Assembly: GCA_963842525.1 (NCBI GenBank) | Contig: CAWJGT010000034.1 | Location: 448,001 to 512,000, forward strand | Length of the DNA: 64,000 nucleotides | Direction: 5' to 3' | From: an uncultured Holophagales bacterium | Lineage (GTDB): Bacteria; Acidobacteriota; Thermoanaerobaculia; Multivoradales; UBA5704 | Notes under the pieces: model-generated | Databases searched by the model: none | What the model was told of the DNA's origin: nothing | What the model saw: the letters and a program-made list of their open reading frames with translations, nothing else | In this document: positions 162 to 64,000 of the stretch, piece after piece | Layout of the letters: each line of letters opens with the position of its first letter | Numbering within the stretch: the first letter of the stretch is position 1 | Position numbers and translations under genes: made by a program

Positions 162-2972
162 ATGAGACAGACGTGCCGTTGCCTGCTGCTCGGTTTCCTG
201 CTGCTCCCTCTGGCCACGGCTTCGTGGTCCCAGACGACGGGGGGCATCGTCGGCCGTGCCACCGACCCGGAGGGGGCGGTGCTGCCCGGGGTGACGGTCG
301 AGGCGCGCGGGCCTTCGCTCCAGGGCTCCCGGGTGGTCACGACCGACGAGACCGGGACCTATCGCCTCACCCTGCTCCCCCCCGGCGAGTACACGGTGAG
401 CTTCGCACTCGAAGGGTTTGCCGCCGACAACCGCGAGCAGGTGGCCGTGGGCCTCGACCGCGACACGGTGCTCAACCCGGTGCTGCGCCCGGCCATGGCC
501 GAGGAGATCACCGTCACCGGGGAGGTGCCGGTGGTCGACACCACCGCGACCGCGCTCGGCGCGAACCTGGACCAGCGCACCATCGAGAGCCTGCCGACGG
601 GGCGCAACTATTCGTCGGTCGTCCAGATCGCCCCGGGCGTCTCTTCCGATGCGCATCCGGAAAACACCTCGCAGGGGTCGATCACCGTGTACGGCTCGAC
701 CGGCGCGGAGAACGTCTTCTATGTGGACGGGGTGAACACCACGGGCGTCGAATACGGCTTCCAGGGCAAGGAGCTGAACTTCGAGTTCATCCAGGCGATC
801 GACGTCAAGACCGGCGGCTATGAGGCGGAGCTCGGACGCTCGACAGGCGGCATCATCAACGTCATCACCAAGTCGGGCGGCAACGAGCTCCATGGCGACG
901 TCTTCGGCTACTACGACGCCGACGACCTGCAGAGCAGCGCCGACCCGGTGGTCTCGACCGGCGGCACGACCGCCGGCTTCACCCGTGAGGACTACGGGCT
1001 CGACCTGGGCGGCTATTTCGTGAAGGACAAGCTCTGGTTCTTCGCCGCCTACGACCGGGTGTCGAACTCGCTCGACAGCTCCCTGCCGGCCGGACCGCTC
1101 GAGGGGCAGATCGTCACGTCCGAGAGCGATCGCGACCTCGCGGCATTCAAGCTGACCTGGCTGCTGACGAGCAACCACTCGCTGGTCGGGACCTTTTTCC
1201 AGGACCCGCGGGATGACACGGGTGCGATCAACGACGCGCAGCACACCCTGAACGGCGAGCCCTCGACCTATGAGGGCGTGCGCAGCTTCGGCGGCAAGGA
1301 CTACGCCTTGCGCTACGACGGCCTCGCCGGCTCGGCCTGGGTGTTCTCGGCGCAGGCTGCCCAGCACCAGGAGGAGAACTCGGTCGCGCCGGCCACGGCG
1401 GAAGGCGACACGATCCAGTACAGGATCGTGGACAGCAATTTCTTCCAGACCGGCGGCTTCGGCCTGATCCAGGACAAGGCGTTCGACCGCGACTTCTACG
1501 GCGCCTCCGCGACCCGCTACCTGGGGTCGCACGAGGTCAAGGGCGGGCTCGAATACGAGACGGAGTCCGCGGACGTGGTCCGCCGCTATTCAGGCGGCCA
1601 GCAGGTGGACGTCTTCGCCAATCTGGTGAACCCGAGCCAGCCGATCTACCAGCACTTCTACTGGACCACGCCCACGGCCACGGTCGGCAATGCGCCGGTC
1701 TCGGCCCTGATCGCCGCGCCCGAGCACAAGGTCACCACGGTCTACCTCCAGGACCGCTGGTCGCTGCGGCCCAACCTGACGTTCAATTTCGGTGTGCGCT
1801 GGGACCGGCAGGAGATCTTCGACGCCTCGGGCGAGAAGCGGATCGACCTCAAGGACGACTATGCGCCGCGCCTCGGCTTCATCTGGGATCCCAAGGGGGA
1901 CGCGCGCTCGAAGGTCTTCGGGTCCTACGGCCGGTACTACGAGCAGCTCCCCATGGACCTGGTCATCCGCTCCTTCTCCTTTGAGCGGCAGACGCGCATC
2001 TTCAACTACAGCCCGACGAGCACGACTCCCGATCCGCAGGCCGAAGCGGACATCGACGACGAATCGACCATCTTCGGCGGCTTCACCGAGCCGGTGGATC
2101 CCAACCTCGAAAACCAGTTCATCAACGAATATCTGCTGGGGTATGAGCGCGAGGTGATGCCCGACATGGCACTGGGGGTCAAGGCGATCTATCGCGATTT
2201 TGGCCAGGTGATCGAGGACTTCCTCTGCGCCGACGACGGCACCTACTGCATCGGCAATCCGGGCGAGGGATTGATGAGCCGGGTTTTTACGCTCGACTAT
2301 GCCCAGACCTTCGAGGCTCCCAAGGCGAAGCGGGTCTTCAAGGGGGTGCAGGTCGATCTCCAGAAGCGGCGATCGAAGAATTGGCAGGGGCTCGCGTCCT
2401 ATCTCTACTCCAAGCTCGAAGGGAACTTCGACGGCCTGTACGCCCCGTTCACCAACATCGGGCCGGACCCGAACATCACGGCGGCCTACGACTACTTCGA
2501 CTTCTTCACCAACGGCAGCGACCTGTCGCGGATCACCAACACGGGGCCGCTGTCGAACGACCGGCGCCATCAATTCAAGCTGTCGGGGGTCTACTTCACC
2601 CCGTGGAAGCTGTCGGTCGGCGCCTCGGCTTACTGGCGCTCGGGCACGCCGGTCACCCGCTACGGCTATTCGGACATCTACGGCCGCTACGAGTTCTTCC
2701 TCTCCCGCCGCGGCGCCGAGGGGCGCACGCCGGACAACTACGAGGCGGACCTCCACCTCGGCTATCCGCTCGACGTAGGGCCGGCGTCGATCAACTTCCT
2801 GGTGGATGTTTTCAATATTCTGAACGCCCAGCGGGCGGTCCTGGTCGACCAGCGGTGGGGCTTCCAGGAGGCGGATAACGCCTTGCCCTCCCCCACAAAT
2901 CCAGGCTACAAGCAGCCGGTCCTGCGAACGCCGCCGACCTCGTTCCGGCTGGGGGTGCGCGTCAGCTTCTGA
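162..2972 (+). CDS. TonB-dependent receptor, Oar-like, with N-terminal carboxypeptidase-regulatory-like domain
   Basis: Signal peptide (MRQTCRCLLLGFLLLPLATASWSQ) after GGAGG RBS; GAVLPGVTV..TDETGTYRLTLLPPGEYTV..LEGF domain; plug motifs (IDVKTGGYEAELGRSTGGIINVITKSG); C-terminal beta-signal LGVRVSF. Confidence 0.92.
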   Translation: MRQTCRCLLLGFLLLPLATASWSQTTGGIVGRATDPEGAVLPGVTVEARGPSLQGSRVVTTDETGTYRLTLLPPGEYTVSFALEGFAADNREQVAVGLDRDTVLNPVLRPAMAEEITVTGEVPVVDTTATALGANLDQRTIESLPTGRNYSSVVQIAPGVSSDAHPENTSQGSITVYGSTGAENVFYVDGVNTTGVEYGFQGKELNFEFIQAIDVKTGGYEAELGRSTGGIINVITKSGGNELHGDVFGYYDADDLQSSADPVVSTGGTTAGFTREDYGLDLGGYFVKDKLWFFAAYDRVSNSLDSSLPAGPLEGQIVTSESDRDLAAFKLTWLLTSNHSLVGTFFQDPRDDTGAINDAQHTLNGEPSTYEGVRSFGGKDYALRYDGLAGSAWVFSAQAAQHQEENSVAPATAEGDTIQYRIVDSNFFQTGGFGLIQDKAFDRDFYGASATRYLGSHEVKGGLEYETESADVVRRYSGGQQVDVFANLVNPSQPIYQHFYWTTPTATVGNAPVSALIAAPEHKVTTVYLQDRWSLRPNLTFNFGVRWDRQEIFDASGEKRIDLKDDYAPRLGFIWDPKGDARSKVFGSYGRYYEQLPMDLVIRSFSFERQTRIFNYSPTSTTPDPQAEADIDDESTIFGGFTEPVDPNLENQFINEYLLGYEREVMPDMALGVKAIYRDFGQVIEDFLCADDGTYCIGNPGEGLMSRVFTLDYAQTFEAPKAKRVFKGVQVDLQKRRSKNWQGLASYLYSKLEGNFDGLYAPFTNIGPDPNITAAYDYFDFFTNGSDLSRITNTGPLSNDRRHQFKLSGVYFTPWKLSVGASAYWRSGTPVTRYGYSDIYGRYEFFLSRRGAEGRTPDNYEADLHLGYPLDVGPASINFLVDVFNILNAQRAVLVDQRWGFQEADNALPSPTNPGYKQPVLRTPPTSFRLGVRVSF

Positions 2973-2976
2973 GAGC

Positions 2977-3005
2977 TTGACAATTTATAGATCTCCTGCT
3001 ATATA
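2977..3005 (+). promoter_or_regulatory. sigma70-like promoter TTGACA-17bp-TATATA
   Basis: AT-rich patch in a GC-rich genome: ttgaca(2977-2982) atttatagatctcctgc tatata(3000-3005), with TG extended -10. Only a gene remnant follows. Confidence 0.5.
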
Positions 3006-3009
3006 GGCC

Positions 3010-3240
3010 CGCACGAGCGGGCTCACGCTGCTCCAGGAGGTGAGCGTCGGCACCATCTCGACGAGCACCTTCCATACGCTCGCCCTGGTCTTCGAGGGAA
3101 ACCGGATCTCGCTGGTCTACAACGGCTCGACGCTCGCGCAGGTCAACGACTCCACCGCCGGCCACCTCCTCGGCGGGATCGATCACGGGGATCACCTCGG
3201 GAGGAAACTCGGTGACCTACACGACCGAGACGATCAAGGG
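3010..3240 (+). pseudogene. Gene remnant, beta-sandwich (ConA/DUF1080-like) fragment
   Basis: Reads ..VGTISTSTFHTLALVFEGNRISLVYNGSTLAQVNDST..GGI, resembling a lectin-like beta-sandwich end. No convincing N-terminus. Confidence 0.35.
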
Positions 3241-3242
3241 GG

Positions 3243-4182
3243 TCAGCTATGCGGTGTTTGCGGGTGCGGCGGGGACGTATTCGGTGACGTACGCGCCGTA
3301 GGGCGCACCGACACCGCCACGCCCACGATGACCAGGGCCGCGCCCATCATCACCCGGAGGGTGATGGGCTCGTCCATGAAGACGCTGCCGACGATCACGG
3401 CGACGACCGGGACGGCGTAGTTGATCAGCGAGAGCCCGGTCGCCGTGTGGCGCTTGAGGAGCCAGAAGTAGACGGTGAAAGGAAAGGCGGAGCCGACCAG
3501 GCCGAGGTAGAACAGGGCGAGCGACCGGCCGCGGGGAGAAAGTCACCTCGCGGCCGGCTTCGGCGACCCGGGAGATCGGTCCCAGGGCCAGGGCGCAGAG
3601 GCCCATGGGCACCGCCGCGGTCGAGAGCGGGTGGATCCCCGCGCCCCACTTCTTGACCGACACGCTGCCGATCGCCGAGAAGACCGGGCAGAGCAGCAAC
3701 ACCGACGCCGCGAAAGCCACCTTCGGGCCGAGCAGCGCCCGGAAATCCTCCGAGAAGATCACCGCCACCCCTGCGAAGCCGATCAGCACGCCGACGGCGC
3801 CGCGCCGCGTGAGCTGCTCGCCGGGCAGCGCAAAGTGAGCGATCACGGCCACGATCAACGGGAACGTCGCGAAGAGGACCGCGGCGAGCCCCGAGGGCAC
3901 CCACTGCTCCGCCCAGTAGAGGAGGCTGTAGGAAAGGCAAAAGGTGAAGAGGCCGTTGGTGATCCAGACCGCCCACTCGCGCCGGCTGTTCCCCAGGCGG
4001 ACCTTGAAGACCGGAAAGAGGGCGAGCAGGGCCGCCGCGGCGATGCCGAAGCGCAGGGCCACGCCGGTCAGCGGCGGGATGCCTTCGAGGCTGATCCGGA
4101 TGGCCGCCCAGGTGGTCCCCCAGATGAGGACCAGGATGGCCAGAGCGGCCCAGGTCCTCCACTTCTGCCCCTCGGCCGTCAC
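3243..4182 (-). CDS. EamA/DMT family transporter (apparent frameshift near 3525)
   Basis: LIWGTTWAAIRI..ALRFGIAA..GLAAVLFATFPL; after the shift it continues LFYLGLVGSAFPFTVYFWLLKR..INYAVPVVAVIVG..EPITLR to TGA at 3243. Confidence 0.85.
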
Positions 4183-55695: not shown

Positions 55696-57510
55696 CTATT
55701 GCCACGTCTTCACCTGCGACAATCGCTTCTCGATCACCTCGACGAGGTTTCCGTCGGGATCGAGGCAATGGAACGAGAGTTCACCCCACGGAAGCGCCAC
55801 GATGGGATGAACAGGTCCACCGAGCGAAGACACGCGCGCATGCGCCGCGTGGATATCGCTGACATGCAATTCAACACGGTTCCTGCGATTCGCGAGCTCG
55901 GGCACCACGAGCCTTCCCGAAAGCTCTATAGCCGTCTGCGCATCTACCAGGGAGAGCGCGCCGAACTGCACGAAGCGGCTGCTCTTCCTCGTATGCGTGA
56001 GCCCAAGCCGTTCATAGAACGACGCCGACGTCGCGAGGTGCGAGACCGTAAGCTTCACACCTCCGGCGCGCACGTCGAGCTTCTCCTCGGCCCGAGGCGT
56101 CGACTGCTTGGGAGGAGGCTCCGAAGGTCGTCGCTGGGCGGCCTCCTGTGCCATCTCTTCCTTCGACATCCTTCCGATCTTCGTGACGTACAGGGTCTGC
56201 CCGTCTGACGTCGCTAGCTGCCATCCCGCTGCCGTGATGGACGGCGTCGCAGGCGTGAGCTTATAGGGCTCTACGACACGGGCGCGGCGTGTCCCTCCGA
56301 ACTCAAGTTCTCCCTCATACCCTCCGACAAGTCTCTCTATGATGTTTTCGAGGGCTTTAGGGGTGACAGCCGGATGCTCCGGCGTCGCGGCTTCTGCGGG
56401 CTGGCGGGCGGCGAGTTGGTTCGCCATCTTCCGCAAGTACTCGCTGTCCTGTACACCGGCCCATTCTGGAGCCAGCAAGTCAGCCCCTCCTAGCGCTCCA
56501 ACGAGGCCGCCCGTCATGGCAGCGATCGTGTCCGTGTCTGAACCCAGGGCGAACGCTGCGCGCAACACGCCTTGAGTGGGCTGCGTCGCGTATCGCGCGG
56601 CGAGATAGATCGCGGCGGCGGCGCTGATGGTGCCGGAGCCCTTGTCGCGACTGAACGTGCCCATCCGCTCCAGAACAGCATCGTCATTGGCGAGGACTCC
56701 CTCCTCCAGGCCTTTCAGGCCGAAATGGAGCAGTTGCCGCATTTCTTCGACGACCGCAGCCCAGCGCTCCTCGTAGTCTTGGAGGGCGTTGTCCCCGGCT
56801 TCGAGCCACCCGTTCTTGGTCGAGGACGCGACAGGCGGCAGACCCCAGGTGGACGAAGTTTCCAGGAGGACAGTCAGGAGCTCGCCAAACCCTACCGTGT
56901 GCTGCGCGCGCAGGAGCCACCAAGCTGCGTACGCGTAGGCAGCGGCGCCAACGAGCGCACGAGGATGACCGTGCGTGGCCGCGCCGTCCACGACGACATC
57001 CTTCTGCATCGCGGCGGGTTCGTCGGCTTCAGCGTGGAGGACAGCATGCGGAAGTACGCGCATTGCCACGCCGTTCCCGCCCGCCTCGAAGTACCGCCTC
57101 ACGGCCTCTGCATCCGACTGCTTCCACGGGGCCAGGCCGCGCAGCCAGCTTGCCGCTGCGCGCTTCGTTGCACCTCCACCACCCCGCTCGTAGAGCGTCC
57201 ACAGCGGCAACTCGTTCCTCGTGAAATGCTGCCACCATGAAGAGCCAGCGGTGAGGCGCGAGCGGGCAATCGCCAACGTGAGCTGCGTGTCGTCGCTGTA
57301 CTCGCCCGCTCGGATGATCTCGGTGTGCGGGTAGAACCGCCCGCCTCCACGCCGCTCCCAGTCACGAAACGAAGCGGTGGGTTGTACGCGGTGCCTCCGG
57401 TTGACGAACTCTTGCGGCCAGCCGAGTGCATCACCTGCGGCGAGGGCGGTGAACGCCCCTTCGACACGGGCTCTGGCGACCGGCGGTCGCTGTTCCTTGC
57501 CGCTGGTCAT
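55696..57510 (-). CDS. ADP-ribosylglycohydrolase (ARH/DraG family) fused to a C-terminal VOC/glyoxalase-like domain
   Basis: AAGDALGWP, GEYSDDTQL, GNGVAMR, THGHPRA, GSDTDTIAAMTGGLVGA; VOC: LTVSHLATSASFYERLG..LHVSDI..PWGELSFHCLDPDGNLVEV. Confidence 0.92.
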   Translation of the reverse strand: MTSGKEQRPPVARARVEGAFTALAAGDALGWPQEFVNRRHRVQPTASFRDWERRGGGRFYPHTEIIRAGEYSDDTQLTLAIARSRLTAGSSWWQHFTRNELPLWTLYERGGGGATKRAAASWLRGLAPWKQSDAEAVRRYFEAGGNGVAMRVLPHAVLHAEADEPAAMQKDVVVDGAATHGHPRALVGAAAYAYAAWWLLRAQHTVGFGELLTVLLETSSTWGLPPVASSTKNGWLEAGDNALQDYEERWAAVVEEMRQLLHFGLKGLEEGVLANDDAVLERMGTFSRDKGSGTISAAAAIYLAARYATQPTQGVLRAAFALGSDTDTIAAMTGGLVGALGGADLLAPEWAGVQDSEYLRKMANQLAARQPAEAATPEHPAVTPKALENIIERLVGGYEGELEFGGTRRARVVEPYKLTPATPSITAAGWQLATSDGQTLYVTKIGRMSKEEMAQEAAQRRPSEPPPKQSTPRAEEKLDVRAGGVKLTVSHLATSASFYERLGLTHTRKSSRFVQFGALSLVDAQTAIELSGRLVVPELANRRNRVELHVSDIHAAHARVSSLGGPVHPIVALPWGELSFHCLDPDGNLVEVIEKRLSQVKTWQ

Positions 57511-58208
57511 AGCGGACCTCCAGGGTGAAACAGCGTCTCATGTGGAACCATGCCGCGACGGAGCTGGGTGCTGAGCTGATCGGGCCTGAAGAAATCGGGG
57601 GCGACGAAGATCGGCGGGATGACCGCTCTCATCAACTTCAACCGCGAGATCTCGCGTTTTGCCTGGGACTCGTCAGCAACGGCTACCCCCAGGATGTCCT
57701 CGCGAGAAACGCGGTCGGGGATAAGGATTTCAGCCTGCTCGTCCGTGGGGAGCCACGAGGGGTGGTTCGGGGTGCGGTTGAAGACCCGGCCGTACGCGCC
57801 CGGCACCTCGGACCTGAACATAGAATCGAATGCGTCCCCGCCCTCTGCGACCCCGGCTCCTCTGTTTGCCGCAGCGTTGCGCTCGGAGAACTTCGTTCCC
57901 GGCGCCCACAGGTGGTCGGGTTTGATGAACAGCACGACCCAGTCGGCAAACAGGTTCTCGTTGTTCCGCGCGGTCCTGAAGTACCAAGCATTCGGGTACT
58001 GAATCGAGCAGCAGACGTGGTCAGGGAACCCGTCGTACCGCACGATGTCGGTGGCATTGAACACGGCCTTCTCATCCGTCCGCAGGCGCGCGGTGGACAG
58101 AATGCCGTTGGGGTCGGAAACGATGTGCAGCAGGTTTCGAGACGGCGTGAAGTGGCAGAGCCGGGTGATTTGCCGCGTCGTGACCTTTTCGCGAATCAGC
58201 CCCGTCAT
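57507..58208 (-). CDS. darT: DarT-family (DUF4433) ssDNA ADP-ribosyltransferase, DarT1-like
   Basis: LCHFTPSRNL..GILS, RYDG..HVCCSIQYPN, WVVLFI, NAA, PTDEQAEILI (catalytic Glu). Confidence 0.88.
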   Translation of the reverse strand: MTGLIREKVTTRQITRLCHFTPSRNLLHIVSDPNGILSTARLRTDEKAVFNATDIVRYDGFPDHVCCSIQYPNAWYFRTARNNENLFADWVVLFIKPDHLWAPGTKFSERNAAANRGAGVAEGGDAFDSMFRSEVPGAYGRVFNRTPNHPSWLPTDEQAEILIPDRVSREDILGVAVADESQAKREISRLKLMRAVIPPIFVAPDFFRPDQLSTQLRRGMVPHETLFHPGGPL

Positions 58209-59590
58209 CGCGAGCTCCTTTGCAGGAGACCAGCATCGGCGGGCACGAGTGCGGAGGGAGCGCCGGTGTGCGTGAGAACGAGGTCCGACTTCGCGCGTGT
58301 CACGGCGACGTAGAGGAGCTTCGCGTTGCTTGCCGCTGCATCATTGGCACCGAACGCCTCGACATCAGGCGGGTGCGGCAGACGCGCGGACGAAGCGAAG
58401 GGAACGATGACCGCGTTGAACTCTAGCCCCTTCGCCGCGTGATACGTGCCATAGAACACCCGGGGACCATTCGGCCAGCGTCCTAGCTCACGGTGAAGGC
58501 GCGTTGCGGAAATGCGTAACCGCTTCTCAAGCTCTCGATCACGAAAGAGCACCGCGACCGTTCCCTTCTTCGCGTACTGCTGCGCCAGCTCCTCGACGAA
58601 GCGCATCTCCGCGTCTTCGGAGCTGAACCCTACGAGCGCAGGGAGCGGGCCATCAGCCCGTACGGAGTTCGGTTCGATGAGATCTGCAACTCCTCGATAG
58701 AAGGGCGAGCGAGCGAGCGCGAGGGCGAGCTGCGCGATCTGCTTCGAGTTGCGGTAGTTCTCCTCGAACCTCCACACGTTCGCGACGTTGAGCCCCGCGC
58801 TACGCCACGAGATCTTATGACCATAGATCTGCTGTGCCATGTCGCCGAAGAACGTCAGGCTACCGTCTGGGGGAATTGCAGCAGCGAGCGACTGTAGCAT
58901 CACCGGCGAGAAGTCCTGTCCCTCATCGATAATTACGTGCTTGTAGAACCGCTGACTGCTGTCACTCGCGAACTCAGATACGACGGTCTGCGCGAGGTCG
59001 TCCCAGTCATAGGGCTTGCCGGCAGCGATGCGAAGCTCTCGGTGGTGCTGATACGTGGTGAAGAGCACGGGACGACTCGCCCTCGGCACGCGAGAGCCTT
59101 CCCGCCCATCGTTCTCGGCCTCCAAATAGTCGTCGACGCTCGTGATCCAGTTCTGCGAGAGCCAGCGAAACTCCTCCGCGATGAAGCCGATGGGACGGTC
59201 TAGGACCGCGTCCGTCGCTCCGGTCGCCTTCACGGCATCGACGGCGGTTTGTGCGTACGCCTCAGCGGTATCGCCATCGGCGATCGCTTTCCACGACATT
59301 TTCCCGCGCCGGTCCAAGTAGCCACGGGCGAAGTGGTGGTAGTTGCGCACGTCGACTTGGCCGAGCCCGGCGCCAAGGGATTGCAGGTACGCCACGAGGC
59401 ACTTGTTGAAGGTAACCAGCAGCGTTCGCCCGCCGTGATCGGTATCGGAATCCGCGAGGAACGCTGCTCGATGGATCGCGAGCGTGGTCTTGCCGCTCCC
59501 GGCAGTTCCGAGTACGACGATGTGCCCCGATGGGGGCAGTGCCAACACCTCTCTCTGTCGGCCAATAGGCGTCGGCAGCTTCGAAGTCAT
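58205..59590 (-). CDS. Compact UvrD/Rep-like superfamily 1 helicase
   Basis: Q motif RQRE, GTAGSGKT, VTFNK, IIDEGQD, FGDMAQQIY, ENYRNS, TYHAAKGLEF, LLYVAVTRAK. Confidence 0.92.
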   Translation of the reverse strand: MTSKLPTPIGRQREVLALPPSGHIVVLGTAGSGKTTLAIHRAAFLADSDTDHGGRTLLVTFNKCLVAYLQSLGAGLGQVDVRNYHHFARGYLDRRGKMSWKAIADGDTAEAYAQTAVDAVKATGATDAVLDRPIGFIAEEFRWLSQNWITSVDDYLEAENDGREGSRVPRASRPVLFTTYQHHRELRIAAGKPYDWDDLAQTVVSEFASDSSQRFYKHVIIDEGQDFSPVMLQSLAAAIPPDGSLTFFGDMAQQIYGHKISWRSAGLNVANVWRFEENYRNSKQIAQLALALARSPFYRGVADLIEPNSVRADGPLPALVGFSSEDAEMRFVEELAQQYAKKGTVAVLFRDRELEKRLRISATRLHRELGRWPNGPRVFYGTYHAAKGLEFNAVIVPFASSARLPHPPDVEAFGANDAAASNAKLLYVAVTRAKSDLVLTHTGAPSALVPADAGLLQRSSR

Positions 59591-59729
59591 TTCAGCCTCC
59601 CAAGACCTTCATCGCGGCGGCATTCCGGTGCCCGCCACGCTGCCCATTGAGCATAGCTCCGGCAAGTTGGTTGAGTCGACCAGGTACTACCGCCTGAATG
59701 CATACCTTCCGGGGACAGCGGTCTAAGCC

Positions 59730-59755
59730 CGGTTCAAATCCGATCGTCGGCTCCA
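59730..59755 (+). mobile_element. tRNA 3'-end fragment (probably tRNA-Thr), att-like site
   Basis: cggttcaaatccgatcgtcggctcca = T-loop + acceptor 3' strand + T-CCA; the 5' part of the tRNA is absent. Confidence 0.75.
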
Positions 59756-59780
59756 GCTCAAGTCCTTTCCTTCCAACAAC

Positions 59781-60569
59781 TTACTTTGCACCGGTCCCCC
59801 CGCTCGGCGCATCGCAGCAAGCCTCGCAAGCGAGAAAGAAGAGCGACTTCCGGATCGATCTCTGCGCGCTCCACTCTCGATGGTCCCAGCTCTCGCCTCC
59901 GACGTTGTCTCCCGCATAGAGGAGCTGGGCCACGAGGACGTTGCGGAAGTCGCCGACGGCGAAGAGCGCGGCGGCCTCCATCTCCACGACGATCGCCCCC
60001 TCGGCCCGCCTCGCCTGGATCTTGGAACGCGTCTCGCGGAAGATGGCGTCGGTCGTCCAGGTCTTGCCGAACAGGTACGGATGGCCCTGGCTCTCGAGCA
60101 CCTCACGGAGGATCTCGAGACCGAGGGGATTCGCCGCCACCTCGCGTCCAGGCGGGAGGTAGTGATACGAGGTGCCCTCGTCACGAATCGCGGCAGTTGG
60201 AACGATGATCTGCCCCAATGGGATCGCCGGATCGAGCACCCCTGCGCCGCCGCAAGCGATGACCACTCTGGCGCCATGAGCGATCGCCCCCTCGAGCAGA
60301 CCCGCAGCCAAGGGCGCCCCGGAGCCCGCATGAAAGATAGCGATGCGGCGCTTGCGATAGGTGATCTCATAGATGGGGTGCTGCCCCATCTCGCTCCGCT
60401 GCGCGGTCAGCGGAACCAGGTTGTCGCGCAGGACGATGTCGTCTATGACGTCCTTGAAGAAACACGCCACCGCCAATTCCGGGATCGAGACCGATGTGAT
60501 CGTGCCGTGGGGCTCGATCAGCGCCGACCTCTCCGGATCGAATTCAAGGAGGGGGAAGTCGTGGGTCAT
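59781..60569 (-). CDS. Nucleoside phosphorylase (PNP/UDP family)
   Basis: GSGAPLAA, ACGGAG, AIRDEGTSYHY, TWTTDAIFRET, VVEMEAAALF. Confidence 0.9.
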   Translation of the reverse strand: MTHDFPLLEFDPERSALIEPHGTITSVSIPELAVACFFKDVIDDIVLRDNLVPLTAQRSEMGQHPIYEITYRKRRIAIFHAGSGAPLAAGLLEGAIAHGARVVIACGGAGVLDPAIPLGQIIVPTAAIRDEGTSYHYLPPGREVAANPLGLEILREVLESQGHPYLFGKTWTTDAIFRETRSKIQARRAEGAIVVEMEAAALFAVGDFRNVLVAQLLYAGDNVGGESWDHREWSAQRSIRKSLFFLACEACCDAPSGGTGAK

Positions 60570-60570
60570 G

Positions 60571-63500
60571 TTACTCCGCCAGAAGCTCGGCCTCTTCGTC
60601 GGTGAGGCTGTCGATCTGCTCGATCAAGAGCTCCTGGATCGCCGCGCCGAGCCGGCGGACGGTGGGGGATTCGAAGAGGAGGCGCAGGGGGATCTCGAGG
60701 CCCAGGGCGTCGTAGACGCGGGAGGTGAACTCAATGGCGAGGATCGAGTGCGCCCCCACGTCGAAGAGGTTGTCGTCGCGGCCGATCGGCCCGCGCCTCA
60801 GGAGGTCCTGCCAGATGCCGGCGACGAGCTCCTCGAGCTCGGTCTCCAGATCGCCGCCGGGCTCGGCCGCGGGCGCCAGCTCGTCGGCCGGGAGGCGGGC
60901 GCGCAGGGCGCCGCGGTCCACCTTGCCGCTCGGGGTGAGCGGCAGGGCGTCGACGAGCGCAAAGTCGGCGGGCACCATATGCTCCGGCAGGACGCGGCGG
61001 AGGGCGTCGCGGAGCTCCCCCGCCTCCGGCCTGGGCCCCGGTCCCGCCGGCACCACCCAGGCGGCGAGCCGCACCTCCCCCGGCCCCTCCTCCCGCGCCA
61101 CCACCGCCGCCTCGCGGACCGCCGGATGGCCGGCCAGCGCCGCCTCGATCTCCCCCGGCTCGATGCGGAAGCCGCGCAGCTTCACCTGGTCGTCGGTGCG
61201 GCCGAGGAACTCGATCTCGCCGTCGGCCGAGAAGCGCGCCAGGTCGCCCGTCCGATAGAGCCGCTCGCCGGGCCGGCCCAGCGGATGGGGGACGAAGCGC
61301 TCCGCCGTCAGGCCGGGCCGGCGGAGGTAGCCGCGCGCGAGGCCCGTCCCGCCGATGTAGAGCTCGCCGGGCACTCCCAGGGGCACCGGCTGGAGCTCCG
61401 GATCGAGCAGCCAGAGCCCCAAGTTCGCGATCGGGCGCCCGATGGGGACCGTGCGCCGTGCCGGGTCCGGCAGCGTCCGGTGCGCCGTCACGTCGACCGC
61501 CGCCTCGGTGGGACCGTAGAGGTTGTGCAGCTCGGTGATCCCCGCCGGCCCCGCCGGCCCGGCAGGCCCGAGCGCGCCTCCGAGCAACTCGTGGAAACGC
61601 GCCGCAAGCTCGGCCGGCAGCGCCTCGCCGCTCGCCATCACCCGCCGGAGCGAGCGGCAGCGGCCGAGGCCGGGCTGCGCGAGGAAGGCCTGCAGCATCG
61701 GCGGCACGAAGTGGAGCGTCGTCACCCCCTGCTCCTCGATCCGCCGCATCAGGTAGGCCGGATCGCGCTGGCCGCCCGGCCGCGCCAGCACCAGCCGCGC
61801 GCCGACGGCGAGCGGCCAGAACAGCTCCCAGACCGACACGTCGAAGGAGACCGGGGTCTTCTGCAGCACGCGGTCGGCGGGCGTGAGGCCGTAGGCCCGC
61901 TGCATCCAGGCGATCCGGTTGACGATGCCGCGGTGGGTGCTCATGACGCCCTTCGGCCGCCCCGTCGAGCCCGAGGTGTAGATGACGTAGGCGAGGTTGT
62001 CCGCCCCGGCGCCGCCGTCGAGGGGGGCCAGCAGGGGGTTGTCGGCGTCGCCCGCCGGGCCGGCGGCAGCATCGAGGTCGATCAGGCGGGCGCCGGCCCC
62101 CGCCACGGACGCGGAGAGGAGCTCGACCTGCGCCAGGAGCACCGGTTTCGCGAGGCCGTCGAGCCCGTCCTCGATCATGAAGGCCAGCCGCTCCGACGGA
62201 TAGGACGGGTCGAGCGGCAGGTAGGCGCCGCCGGCCTTCAGGATGGCGAGGAGACCCACGACGAGCGCCGGCGAGCGGTCGGCGCAGATCGCGACCGGCT
62301 CGTCGACCCGCACCCCCAGCCGGCGCAGGCGGCGGGCCAGGCGGTTGGCGCGGGCGTCGAGCTCGCGGTAGGTGAGCGATTCGCTCTCGCCGACGACCGC
62401 CGTGGCGCCCGGCGTCAGCGCCGCCTGCCGCTCGATCCAGCGGTGCAGCAGGGGTTCGGCGTCGCCGACCCGCCGACCCGCCGAACACCGCCGAGAAGTC
62501 GGCCGCCGTGTCGTTCAGCTCGACGGCCACCTGCTGCCGCTCGGCCGGCGACAGCAGCTCGATCGCCGCCACGCGGCGCGACGGGTCGTCGCCGCCGCCG
62601 CCAGCAGGTGGAGGAAGTGCCCGGCGAGGCGCTCCATCGTGGTGCGGTCGAAGAGGTCGGTGCTGTACTCGAGCCCCCCGCCGAGCTCTCCCCCTGCTCG
62701 GAGAGGGCGAGGCTCAGGTCGAAGCGGGAGACCCGGGCGGAGAGGTCGAGCGGCTCGACCGCGAGACCGCGCAGGGCGAACGGGACCCGCGGCGTGCTGT
62801 TGAGCGCGAGCATCGTCTGCACCAGCGGCGGGCGGCTGCGGTCGCGCGCGGCGTTGACCTCGTCCACGATGCGCTCGAAGGGGACGTCGGCGTGATCGTA
62901 CGCCGCCAGGGCCGTGTGCCGCACCCGCGCCAGGAGCTCGGCGAAGCTCGGATCGCCGCCGCCGTCGGTGCGCAGGGCGAGCATGTTGAGGAAGACGCCG
63001 ATGAGCGGCTCCAGCTCCGGCCGGGTGCGGTTCGCGACCGGCGTGCCGACGGCGAAGTCGGTCTGCCCGGAATGGCGCTGGAGGAGGGCGTGCCAGACGG
63101 CGAGGACGGTCATGAAGACGGTCGCCTGGCCGCGCCGCGCCAGGCGGCGGAGGTCATCGGCGAGCGCCGGCGGCAGGTCGAGCCGCAGGGAGTTGCCGCT
63201 GCCGCTCGCGACCGGCGGCCGCGGGCGGTCGGCCGGGAGGTCGAGGGCCGGCGTGCCGGCGAGCCGCTCCTTCCAGTGGGCGAGCTGCGCCGCGAGCGCC
63301 TCCTCCGGCCAGGCGCGCTGCCAGGCCGCGAAGTCGGCGTACTGGAGGGGCAGCGGGGCGAGCGGCGACGGCTCCCCCGCCAGCGCGGCGGCGTAGAGGG
63401 CCGACAGCTCGCGCCGCAGCACCCCCTCCGACCAGCCGTCCGACGCGATGTGGTGGAGGGTGAAGAGGAAGGCGTGCTCGTCCTCCTCCAGCCGGAGCAG

Positions 63501-64000
63501 CGTGGCGCGGAGCATCGGGTCGCGCCGGAGGTCGAAGCCGCGGCCGGCCTCGCGGCCGGCGAGCGCGGCGAGCTCCGCCGCCCGGCGCTCCGGCGGCAGA
63601 CCGGAGAGGTCGGCGAGCGGCAGCGGTGCCGGTGGGGTTGGCGGGGGCGGACCGACCTCCTGTCCCGGCTCGCCGTTCGCGACGGCGACGATCCGCGTGC
63701 GCAGCGCCTCGTGGCGGCGCACCACCTCGGCCAGGGCGGCGGCGAGCGCCGCCGGCGCAAACGGCCCGCGCAGGAGGTAGCCCGAGGAGATGTTGTAGGT
63801 CGGGCTCTCCGGCGCCAGCCGGTCCATGAAATAGAGCCGCCGCTGCGGGTAGGACAGCGGCAGGACGCCGTGCCGGCTCGGGAGCGGCACGATGGGTGGC
63901 AGCGCCTCTTCCTGCCGGCCGGCCGCCGCCATCGCCGCCATCGCCGCGATGGCCGCGGCGAGGCCGGCCACCGTCGGCGCCGCGAACACCCGCTGGACCG
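60571..64000 (-). CDS. NRPS 3' end: (T)-C-A-T terminal module without thioesterase; several frameshifts at about 62460-62700; continues beyond the window
   Basis: C: LSYPQRRLYF, HHIASDGWS, QYADFAAWQ; A: YTSGSTGRPKG, FDVSVWE, NLYGPTE, YRTGDL, SGKVDR; T: LFDVGAHSI. Confidence 0.93.

Follow-up and report, generated by a model that had tools for sequence, protein, structure and literature searches.

The window analysed here, a stretch of 64,000 nucleotides from an uncultured Holophagales bacterium, carries on its minus strand a three-gene operon (55696-59590) encoding a compact UvrD-like helicase, a toxin of the DarT family and, at the position of the antitoxin, a protein with the ADP-ribosylglycohydrolase (ARH) fold. 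The operon is a further copy of the DarHTG type and not a system new to the literature; very probably it is a DarHTG-type toxin-antitoxin or abortive-infection operon, which the high-GC (guanine plus cytosine) genome acquired horizontally and whose nearest trio is found in a Kofleriaceae genome. An original prediction, made from the letters of the DNA, had described a DarT1-like toxin, an ARH protein and a compact helicase as a candidate new anti-phage system and had known of no described system with such a trio. The conserved and defence-linked unit has stood up, on the evidence of its domains, of the survey described below and, as far as its main text goes, of PMC13069673. The claim of novelty has fallen, because the trio was published in 2025-26 as DarHTG, also named TgaH-DarTG; prior cataloguing of the arrangement, which the prediction had itself listed as counting against it, is therefore a fact. 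The idea that an ARH protein serves as the antitoxin was right in substance, as the independent work of others on DarHTG, in its main text, confirms.

DarHTG (Liu-DS3) of Escherichia coli was described and tested for defence by Liu et al. (Nucleic Acids Research, April 2026; PMC13069673), and a preprint by Liu et al. (bioRxiv, December 2025) names the same system TgaH-DarTG. According to the main text of PMC13069673, the system consists of DarH, a UvrD-like helicase lacking the 2B domain, DarT and the ARH-like DarG3, which represents a new DarG subfamily. It confers on E. coli protection against T4, T7, T5 and SSL_2009a, mutants in the active site of DarT and in the ATP site of DarH lose defence, mutants of DarG3 could not be built, and the system is reported mostly from Thermodesulfobacteriota and Bacteroidota. 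The window operon resembles DarHTG in being a three-gene unit with a DarT-family toxin, a 2B-less UvrD-like helicase with an intact ATP site and an ARH-fold protein at the antitoxin position, all within one operon. DarG3 of DarHTG is likened to archaeal and eukaryotic ARHs, and the ARH domain in the window has the archaeal MJ1187 and ARH3 as its top Foldseek matches. Unlike E. coli DarHTG, the window operon resides in a high-GC environmental bacterium.

The three open reading frames (ORFs), located at 58205-59590, 57507-58208 and 55696-57510, encode proteins of 461, 233 and 604 amino acids, exactly as had been predicted. Both gene junctions are ATGA overlaps on the minus strand (58205-58208 and 57507-57510), and each of the three start codons is preceded, at 7-9 nt, by a GGAG-type motif; the helicase, darT and ARH genes form a single translationally coupled unit. 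The operon lies in a stretch of lower GC content: 55.5-59.5 kb of the window has 0.62-0.67, whereas the flanks have 0.69-0.73 (48-52 kb) and 0.74-0.78 (60.5-64 kb). All helicase, DarT and ARH motifs that the prediction had named are present in the translations, and Pfam finds the four expected domain types (PF14487, PF03747, PF00903 and UvrD). Judged from the sequences, the catalytic signatures of all three proteins are intact; in alignments of 27 DarT, 72 ARH and 62 helicase sequences the named motif residues are mostly invariant, and the rest are nearly all at least 90% conserved.

The first gene (58205-59590, minus strand) is darH-like and encodes a 461-residue SF1/UvrD-type ATPase-helicase without 2B domain, with Pfam matches to UvrD_C (6.6e-17) and UvrD-helicase (1.5e-13). 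In alignments with proteins of the Protein Data Bank (PDB), residues 22-313 correspond to residues 26-312 of UvrD and residues 374-441 to residues 555-619 of PcrA. Between the 1A/1B and 2A domains, with the boundaries of the UvrD domains as generally described, the helicase has ∼60 residues versus ∼240 in UvrD/PcrA, which fits loss of the 2B domain. The alignment of 62 helicase sequences, which took in 61 of the 76 helicases encoded at the surveyed loci, has a mean column identity of 58%. In these sequences the Walker A motif GTAGSGKT (residues 28-35; 59486-59509) is invariant at G28, A30, G31, S32, G33 and K34, and the Walker B motif, or motif II, DEGQD (residues 222-226; 58913-58927) at D222, E223, Q225 and D226. 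The best helicase match in PADLOC 2.0 is C3a187 'NERD+UvrD' (1.6e-26). An assignment to GajB was considered and rejected, since C3a187 scores better and the GajB models match only parts of the protein, the best of them at 7.8e-16.

The second gene (57507-58208, minus strand) is darT and encodes a 233-residue DarT1-like ADP-ribosyltransferase. Pfam identifies it as DarT (PF14487; 4.9e-19, 69.3 bits versus a cut-off of 22.5) and the PADLOC DarT model matches it at 2.5e-06; the NCBIfam equivalog model toxin_DarT (NF048013) gives 14.6 bits versus a cut-off of 150. The characteristic motifs are located at residues 19-21 (HFT), 57-60 (RYDG), 66-73 (CCSIQYPN) and 154-160 (PTDEQAE). A search of the PDB with the DarT profile yields a single real match, DarT1 of E. 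coli C7 (entry 8baq, 2.8e-30); the other match, a D-amino acid oxidase with 12.8 bits (E 0.61), is taken as chance, and at E<=1 no DarT2 structure is matched. The protein thus probably belongs to the DarT1 type, as had been proposed from the motifs. In the alignment of 27 sequences T155, Q158, A159 and E160 are invariant, and PTDEQAE aligns with the stretch TDVQAA of 8baq. Glu160, encoded at 57729-57731 (minus strand), is the residue that we take to be the catalytic glutamate, following the general DarT literature. Among 1016 candidate sequences 858 are relatives of this DarT at E<=1e-3, nearly all of them with a length of ∼233 residues.

The third gene (55696-57510, minus strand) is darG3-like and occupies the antitoxin position. 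Its 604-residue product matches ADP_ribosyl_GH (PF03747) at 1.2e-40 over residues 18-344 and Glyoxalase (PF00903) at 8.2e-07 over residues 485-592 (29.9 bits versus a cut-off of 20.6); PADLOC 2.0 contains no match for it. An AlphaFold2 model, computed from a 72-row alignment and with a mean pLDDT of 88.6, shows three parts. The N-terminal ARH domain (residues 13-368; 56407-57474) has MJ1187 (1t5j), ARH3, Tri1 (6dre) and DraG as its top Foldseek matches, all with probability 1.00. Its SDDT motif (residues 72-75; 57286-57297), presumably metal-binding as in the structures of ARH/DraG proteins, is invariant at S72, D73 and D74 in 72 sequences, as are all four residues (D325, T326, D327 and T328) of the DTDT motif (residues 325-328; 56527-56538). 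The alignment omits six of the 77 loci with a plus-strand ARH gene (L004, L035, L047, L052, L061 and L070), the sequences of which are cut or of odd length.

Beyond the ARH domain an extension is present in all 72 aligned partners. Its middle part (residues 384-459; 56134-56361), here called the β-domain, is modelled with high pLDDT as a helix, a four-stranded sheet and a second helix, and carries the signature W..L.T.DGQTLY, in which G437 and Q438 are invariant in 72/72 ARH partners. A profile of the β-domain has no PDB sequence match at E<=5 and no usable match in the ESM Atlas, and a Foldseek search with the C-terminal model gave mostly VOC matches, among which no relative of the β-domain surfaced. 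A linker that is disordered in the model (residues 468-480) connects it to the C-terminal domain (residues 485-594; 55729-56058). Both Pfam and Foldseek assign this domain to the VOC/glyoxalase superfamily, the paired βαβββ fold of which it has; the Foldseek matches include 2qnt (TM-score by target 0.80), glyoxalase-like proteins and proteins binding mitomycin, bleomycin and other antibiotics. Judged by eye from the alignment, the first-strand position of the VOC metal site varies among VOC-tailed partners.

The VOC domain is one of several tails. Pfam calls Glyoxalase in 21/72 ARH partners, and a rule that draws on length, on a few motifs and on a list made by hand, by which the tail types were set, gives 23 VOC tails. 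A clade of 26 rows (support 100) has weak but consistent matches to winged-helix families in its tails (TrmB in 14/22, HTH_29 in 12/22), and a clade of 20 Bacillota rows has a third type of tail, which is short and helical. On the tree of the ARH core the tail labels require 6 changes versus a mean of 35.3 after shuffling, and the winged-helix-tailed clade is nested among VOC-tailed rows, from which it follows that the tail is inherited within clades and has been replaced a few times. The main text of PMC13069673 mentions neither the β-domain nor a glyoxalase/VOC or any other C-terminal domain of DarG3. A literature search combining DarT, ADP-ribosyl and glyoxalase turned up only PMC13092281 (DefensePredictor), which lists 'a purine phosphorylase domain' and 'a glyoxalase' among uncharacterised predicted defence domains and ties neither to DarT.

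The conservation of the trio was assessed by scanning one genome per species with two DarT motif patterns; it gave 117 stretches, of which 85 code for a relative, and the survey uses the 80 best of these as its loci. At 72 of these 80 loci the helicase, DarT and ARH genes are colinear and adjacent. Since the same gene order recurs so often, the arrangement is far beyond chance, and the neighbourhood survey that had been proposed as a check of the prediction comes out in its favour. At the other eight loci the helicase is displaced or fragmentary (2), has no match (2), the ARH gene is displaced (1) or the order is rearranged (1); the remaining two are L068, with NADAR instead of ARH, and L057, a short contig with DarT only, both discussed below. 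The trio is found in Myxococcota, Acidobacteriota, Latescibacterota, Pseudomonadota, Cyanobacteriota, Planctomycetota, Chloroflexota, Actinomycetota and Bacillota and in two archaeal metagenome-assembled genomes (MAGs). Unlike in the published DarHTG report, Thermodesulfobacteriota and Bacteroidota are absent among the 80 loci. The ARH tree is at odds with host taxonomy; the trio is inherited as a block across phyla. It is present on a Streptomyces plasmid, beside an integrase gene and with the helicase named '3'-5' exonuclease' by PGAP, on a Ralstonia megaplasmid and on one IMG/VR contig. A tblastn search of plasmids with DarT gave 23 records, none from E. coli; blastn of the trios of L023 and L065 and of stretch L112 against E. 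coli genomes gave no match, nor was there one in the E. coli K-12 chromosome. The two archaeal cases, L056 and L047, are MAG contigs labelled Bathyarchaeia and Nitrosopumilaceae; the ARH of L056 nests among Bacillota sequences, beside L069, a placement that could reflect transfer or a binning error.

Within the host lineage the distribution is equally patchy, with DarT found in 1/60 relatives and in 0/5 members of the same genus. Three genomes of this genus share the order of hemB, hemL and a ferredoxin gene with the window as far as ∼52720, and their next 4-10 kb contain no match to the region 52.7-60.4 kb of the window. The nearest trio is that of a Kofleriaceae MAG (L002), with 88% identity in DarT and 92% in the ARH core, in a different genomic context. 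The sole relative with a trio (L099; G435:C37:64750-68442) belongs to the same family and another genus; its DarT match contains a TAA stop and its helicase is seemingly split into two ORFs, so that it may be a decaying copy.

The surroundings of the trio at other loci link it to defence. The flanks were clustered at 73 loci, and names were given to recurrent clusters only, with one example protein serving for each cluster; a recurrent defence neighbour was recognized with PADLOC at at least 21/73 loci, a count that is to be read as a floor. The families comprise PglX (10 loci, example bit score 1637), PglZ (6), BrxL (4), type I methyltransferase (4), PDC-S05 / RhuM (5), Ppl (3) and a SIR2/pAgo-like family (3); in addition, a large serine recombinase recurs at 4 loci. 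At 13 loci (L011, L013, L022, L026, L028-L031, L033, L035, L038, L039 and L056) the BREX genes PglX, PglZ and BrxL surround the trio on the same strand, and at several of these the end of pglX lies within tens of bases of darH. The trio appears here as cargo inside BREX loci, and its location between pglX and pglZ/brxL in one clade offers a natural setting for studying cooperation with BREX.

Comparison with other known systems places the window operon next to DarTG. With DarTG1 of E. coli C7 (Schuller et al. 2023; PMC11543638, available text) it shares a DarT1-like toxin; unlike DarTG1, it has an ARH-fold protein in the place of NADAR, which is absent from operon and genome, and an added helicase. 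With DarTG2 of Thermus and Mycobacterium it shares a DarT-family toxin gene followed by an ADP-ribose hydrolase at the antitoxin position, but the window has no adjacent macrodomain, a score below the cut-off for the DarT2 equivalog and, at E<=1, no match to a DarT2 structure. Tre1-Tri1 and DraT-DraG likewise couple an ARH-fold hydrolase to the ADP-ribosyltransferase whose modification it undoes, and Tri1 and DraG are among the best matches of the ARH domain; unlike DarT, Tre1 and DraT modify protein arginine and do not belong to the DarT family, and these pairs are without helicase, β-domain and VOC tail. GajB of Gabija, like the window helicase, is a compact SF1 UvrD-like ATPase of a defence operon; unlike Gabija, the window operon contains no gene for a GajA-type nuclease (OLD/TOPRIM). 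A partner acting in trans, a NADAR or macrodomain protein, had been named as something that would count against the prediction. The host genome (96.4% complete) has no match to NADAR (PF08719), a single DarT, a single ARH, which is the DarG3-like protein of the window, and one match to Macro (PF01661), of the MacroD type and on another contig (C25).

The following course of events is proposed for the operon; target base, enzymatic reversal, helicase role and role of the VOC tail are inferred. DarT, being of the DarT1 type, would use NAD+ to ADP-ribosylate bases of single-stranded DNA (ssDNA), most likely guanine at N2, and would thereby block replication. In the uninfected cell DarG3 would keep DarT harmless, its metal-dependent ARH domain hydrolysing the adduct, and the β-domain and clade-specific tail (VOC here) may serve regulation, the binding of DNA or a ligand, or dimerization. 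DarH, as a 2B-less UvrD-like ATPase, would most likely sense or generate phage ssDNA and replication intermediates and so direct or license DarT.

The likely target is suggested by loci at which the ARH protein has been replaced. According to the available parts of PMC11543638 and PMC11125620, guanine in ssDNA is the target of DarT1, and the adduct is taken off again by the NADAR partner. At L068, on a Bacillota contig (5573-8348), a DarH-like helicase (2e-78), a DarT (5.4e-44) and a 225-residue protein of the NADAR-DarT1 family (PF22397, 1.9e-85) are colinear, and at L112, from the class of genome G003 (674-3536), helicase and DarT genes are accompanied by a convergent NADAR-DarT1 gene (1.2e-86); no ARH is encoded at either locus, where NADAR-DarT1 takes its place. 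The occurrence of NADAR-DarT1 on the same helicase-DarT backbone suggests that the ARH protein removes the same adduct, probably guanine-ADP-ribose (guanine-ADPr), and the simplest reading of these sequences is that ARH and NADAR can stand in for each other as erasers of one kind of adduct. Among 401 Bacillota genomes sampled 6 have NADAR-DarT1, with a DarH-like helicase at 0/5 of the others fetched, and a sample of 400 genomes from the class of G003 gave only three further weak DarT matches, all with NADAR. The DarT of L068 belongs, in the tree of this family, to the 81 helicase-linked rows and pairs with that of L057 (support 98), its deeper placement being weak. The helicase-linked DarT1-NADAR form is not mentioned in the available parts of the DarT1/NADAR literature; older papers on DarT neighbourhoods may mention such links. 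As to L057, its DarT (144-827), the nearest relative of that of L068, is immediately followed by genes for sorbose/mannose transport of the phosphotransferase system and by no hydrolase; the contig begins 143 nt upstream of DarT, and a partner may lie off the contig. The row is labelled in the tree as helicase-DarT-ARH, with helicase and ARH not visible on this short contig.

Taken further, DarG3 might be the first ARH-fold enzyme that removes ADPr from a DNA base (guanine N2), a task so far credited to NADARs alone, having displaced NADAR on a pre-existing helicase-DarT1 backbone, with swappable tails in a regulatory or sensor role. This joint proposal is tentative, and we regard it as rather less probable than its negation. 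As part of it, the clade-specific tails would set when the antitoxin frees DarT, and the VOC domain might bind a small molecule. Erasure of guanine-ADPr by DarG3, if true, would widen the known chemistry of the ARH fold; the ARH protein as a third antitoxin fold and the essential helicase in any case extend the DarTG family. Besides the predicted activity, interest attaches to the modular build of DarG3, to the helicase-DarT-NADAR intermediates and to the copies embedded in BREX loci.

Several observations weigh against the assignment to DarHTG and the mechanism given above. Membership in DarHTG would follow from the architecture, not from a sequence match to Liu-DS3. A consensus scan that included the 190 nt of intergenic sequence before the helicase gene (59591-59780, minus strand), where the promoter is presumed to lie, called no sigma-70-type promoter, and no terminator was called for the operon; the sole terminator-like site is within darT on the opposite strand, and the count is below that in shuffled sequence. 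The 64-kb window contains no integrase gene or tRNA, and its genes on either side of the operon, for a PNP_UDP_1 protein (59781-60569) and a MacB/FtsX permease (53074-55491), match no PADLOC family. The closest sequence matches of the ARH domain are DraG (TIGR02662, 2.5e-15; 2woe, 5.4e-12) and Tri1, both of which act on arginine-ADPr of proteins. In the available part of PMC11833690, the ARH-like SCO5809 and the human ARHs did not clear guanosine-ADPr RNA, and NADARs are reported as the only family that removes guanosine-linked ADPr from RNA. A guanine-hydrolase step would accordingly be without precedent for the ARH fold.

These last points bear on the alternative that DarT has a target other than DNA guanine, such as thymine, RNA or protein arginine, and that the ARH protein reverses the resulting linkage in the manner of DraG or Tri1. 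In addition to the sequence matches of the ARH domain and the inactivity of the tested ARH-like enzymes, a long branch in the DarT tree (1.49, support 95) separates the 81 helicase-linked rows from three helicase-less DarT1s. On the other hand, DarT1 is the only real match of the DarT profile in the PDB, and NADAR-DarT1, a family specific for guanine-ADPr as far as the texts available describe it, replaces the ARH protein at two helicase-DarT loci. We regard a different target as unlikely.

Comparably improbable is that DarG3 neutralizes DarT mainly by binding through its β-domain, in the style of a type II antitoxin, with ARH catalysis being secondary or serving another purpose. All 72 partners retain the β-domain and its invariant G437-Q438 while their tails are swapped, and canonical DarG is said to act like both type II and type IV antitoxins. 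Against this, both metal-site motifs of the ARH domain are invariant in the 72 sequences, which argues for selection on catalysis, and where NADAR stands in for the ARH protein there is no β-domain, the L068 partner being NADAR over its full length. A prediction of the DarG3-DarT complex returned no answer (score 0.00), which speaks neither for nor against binding.

Least probable is a growth-control or stress module, in which reversible DNA ADP-ribosylation tunes replication and transcription and the helicase processes adducts: DarTG of Mycobacterium tuberculosis controls stationary-phase growth (PMC12170906, available text), UvrD-type helicases act in repair and the neighbours in the window are not defence genes, but an operon of this architecture protects E. 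coli from phages (main text of PMC13069673), BREX, restriction-modification and other defence genes flank the trio at 21/73 loci, and the patchy spread (1/60 relatives, ARH tree) conflicts with taxonomy. For genome annotation, darH, darT and darG3 are suitable gene names.

Upstream of darH, at a distance of 190 nt, the PNP_UDP_1 nucleoside phosphorylase gene (59781-60569, minus strand) lies in the same lower-GC stretch, and one base separates its start from the stop codon of a nonribosomal peptide synthetase (NRPS) gene. It was considered as a fourth member of the operon and rejected, being present at 0/80 trio loci; the 'purine phosphorylase domain' in the list of PMC13092281 is, however, among the predicted defence domains. 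The NRPS genes to the right of the operon are separate minus-strand ORFs, encoding an A-PCP module (60571-62313) and a condensation domain (62415-63998). On the left side, a fragment of a condensation domain containing the HHIIFDGWS region is found at 52863-53012 (plus strand), just left of the permease gene, and may have been left behind by a rearrangement where the variable region begins. A repeat search found no convincing direct repeats flanking the operon. Synteny ends, ahead of the variable region, with the ferredoxin-like gene at 52426-52722 (plus strand); it contains two copies of a repeat coding for a cysteine motif, and its product is 87-94% identical in the three same-genus genomes, in which the distance from hemL to the ferredoxin-like gene is ∼1.1 kb greater. 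Further to the left, two adjoining minus-strand genes at 47995-50036 in the ORF list contain the P-loops GGVGKTT and GKGGVGKT and by eye resemble ArsA/Get3-like ATPases.

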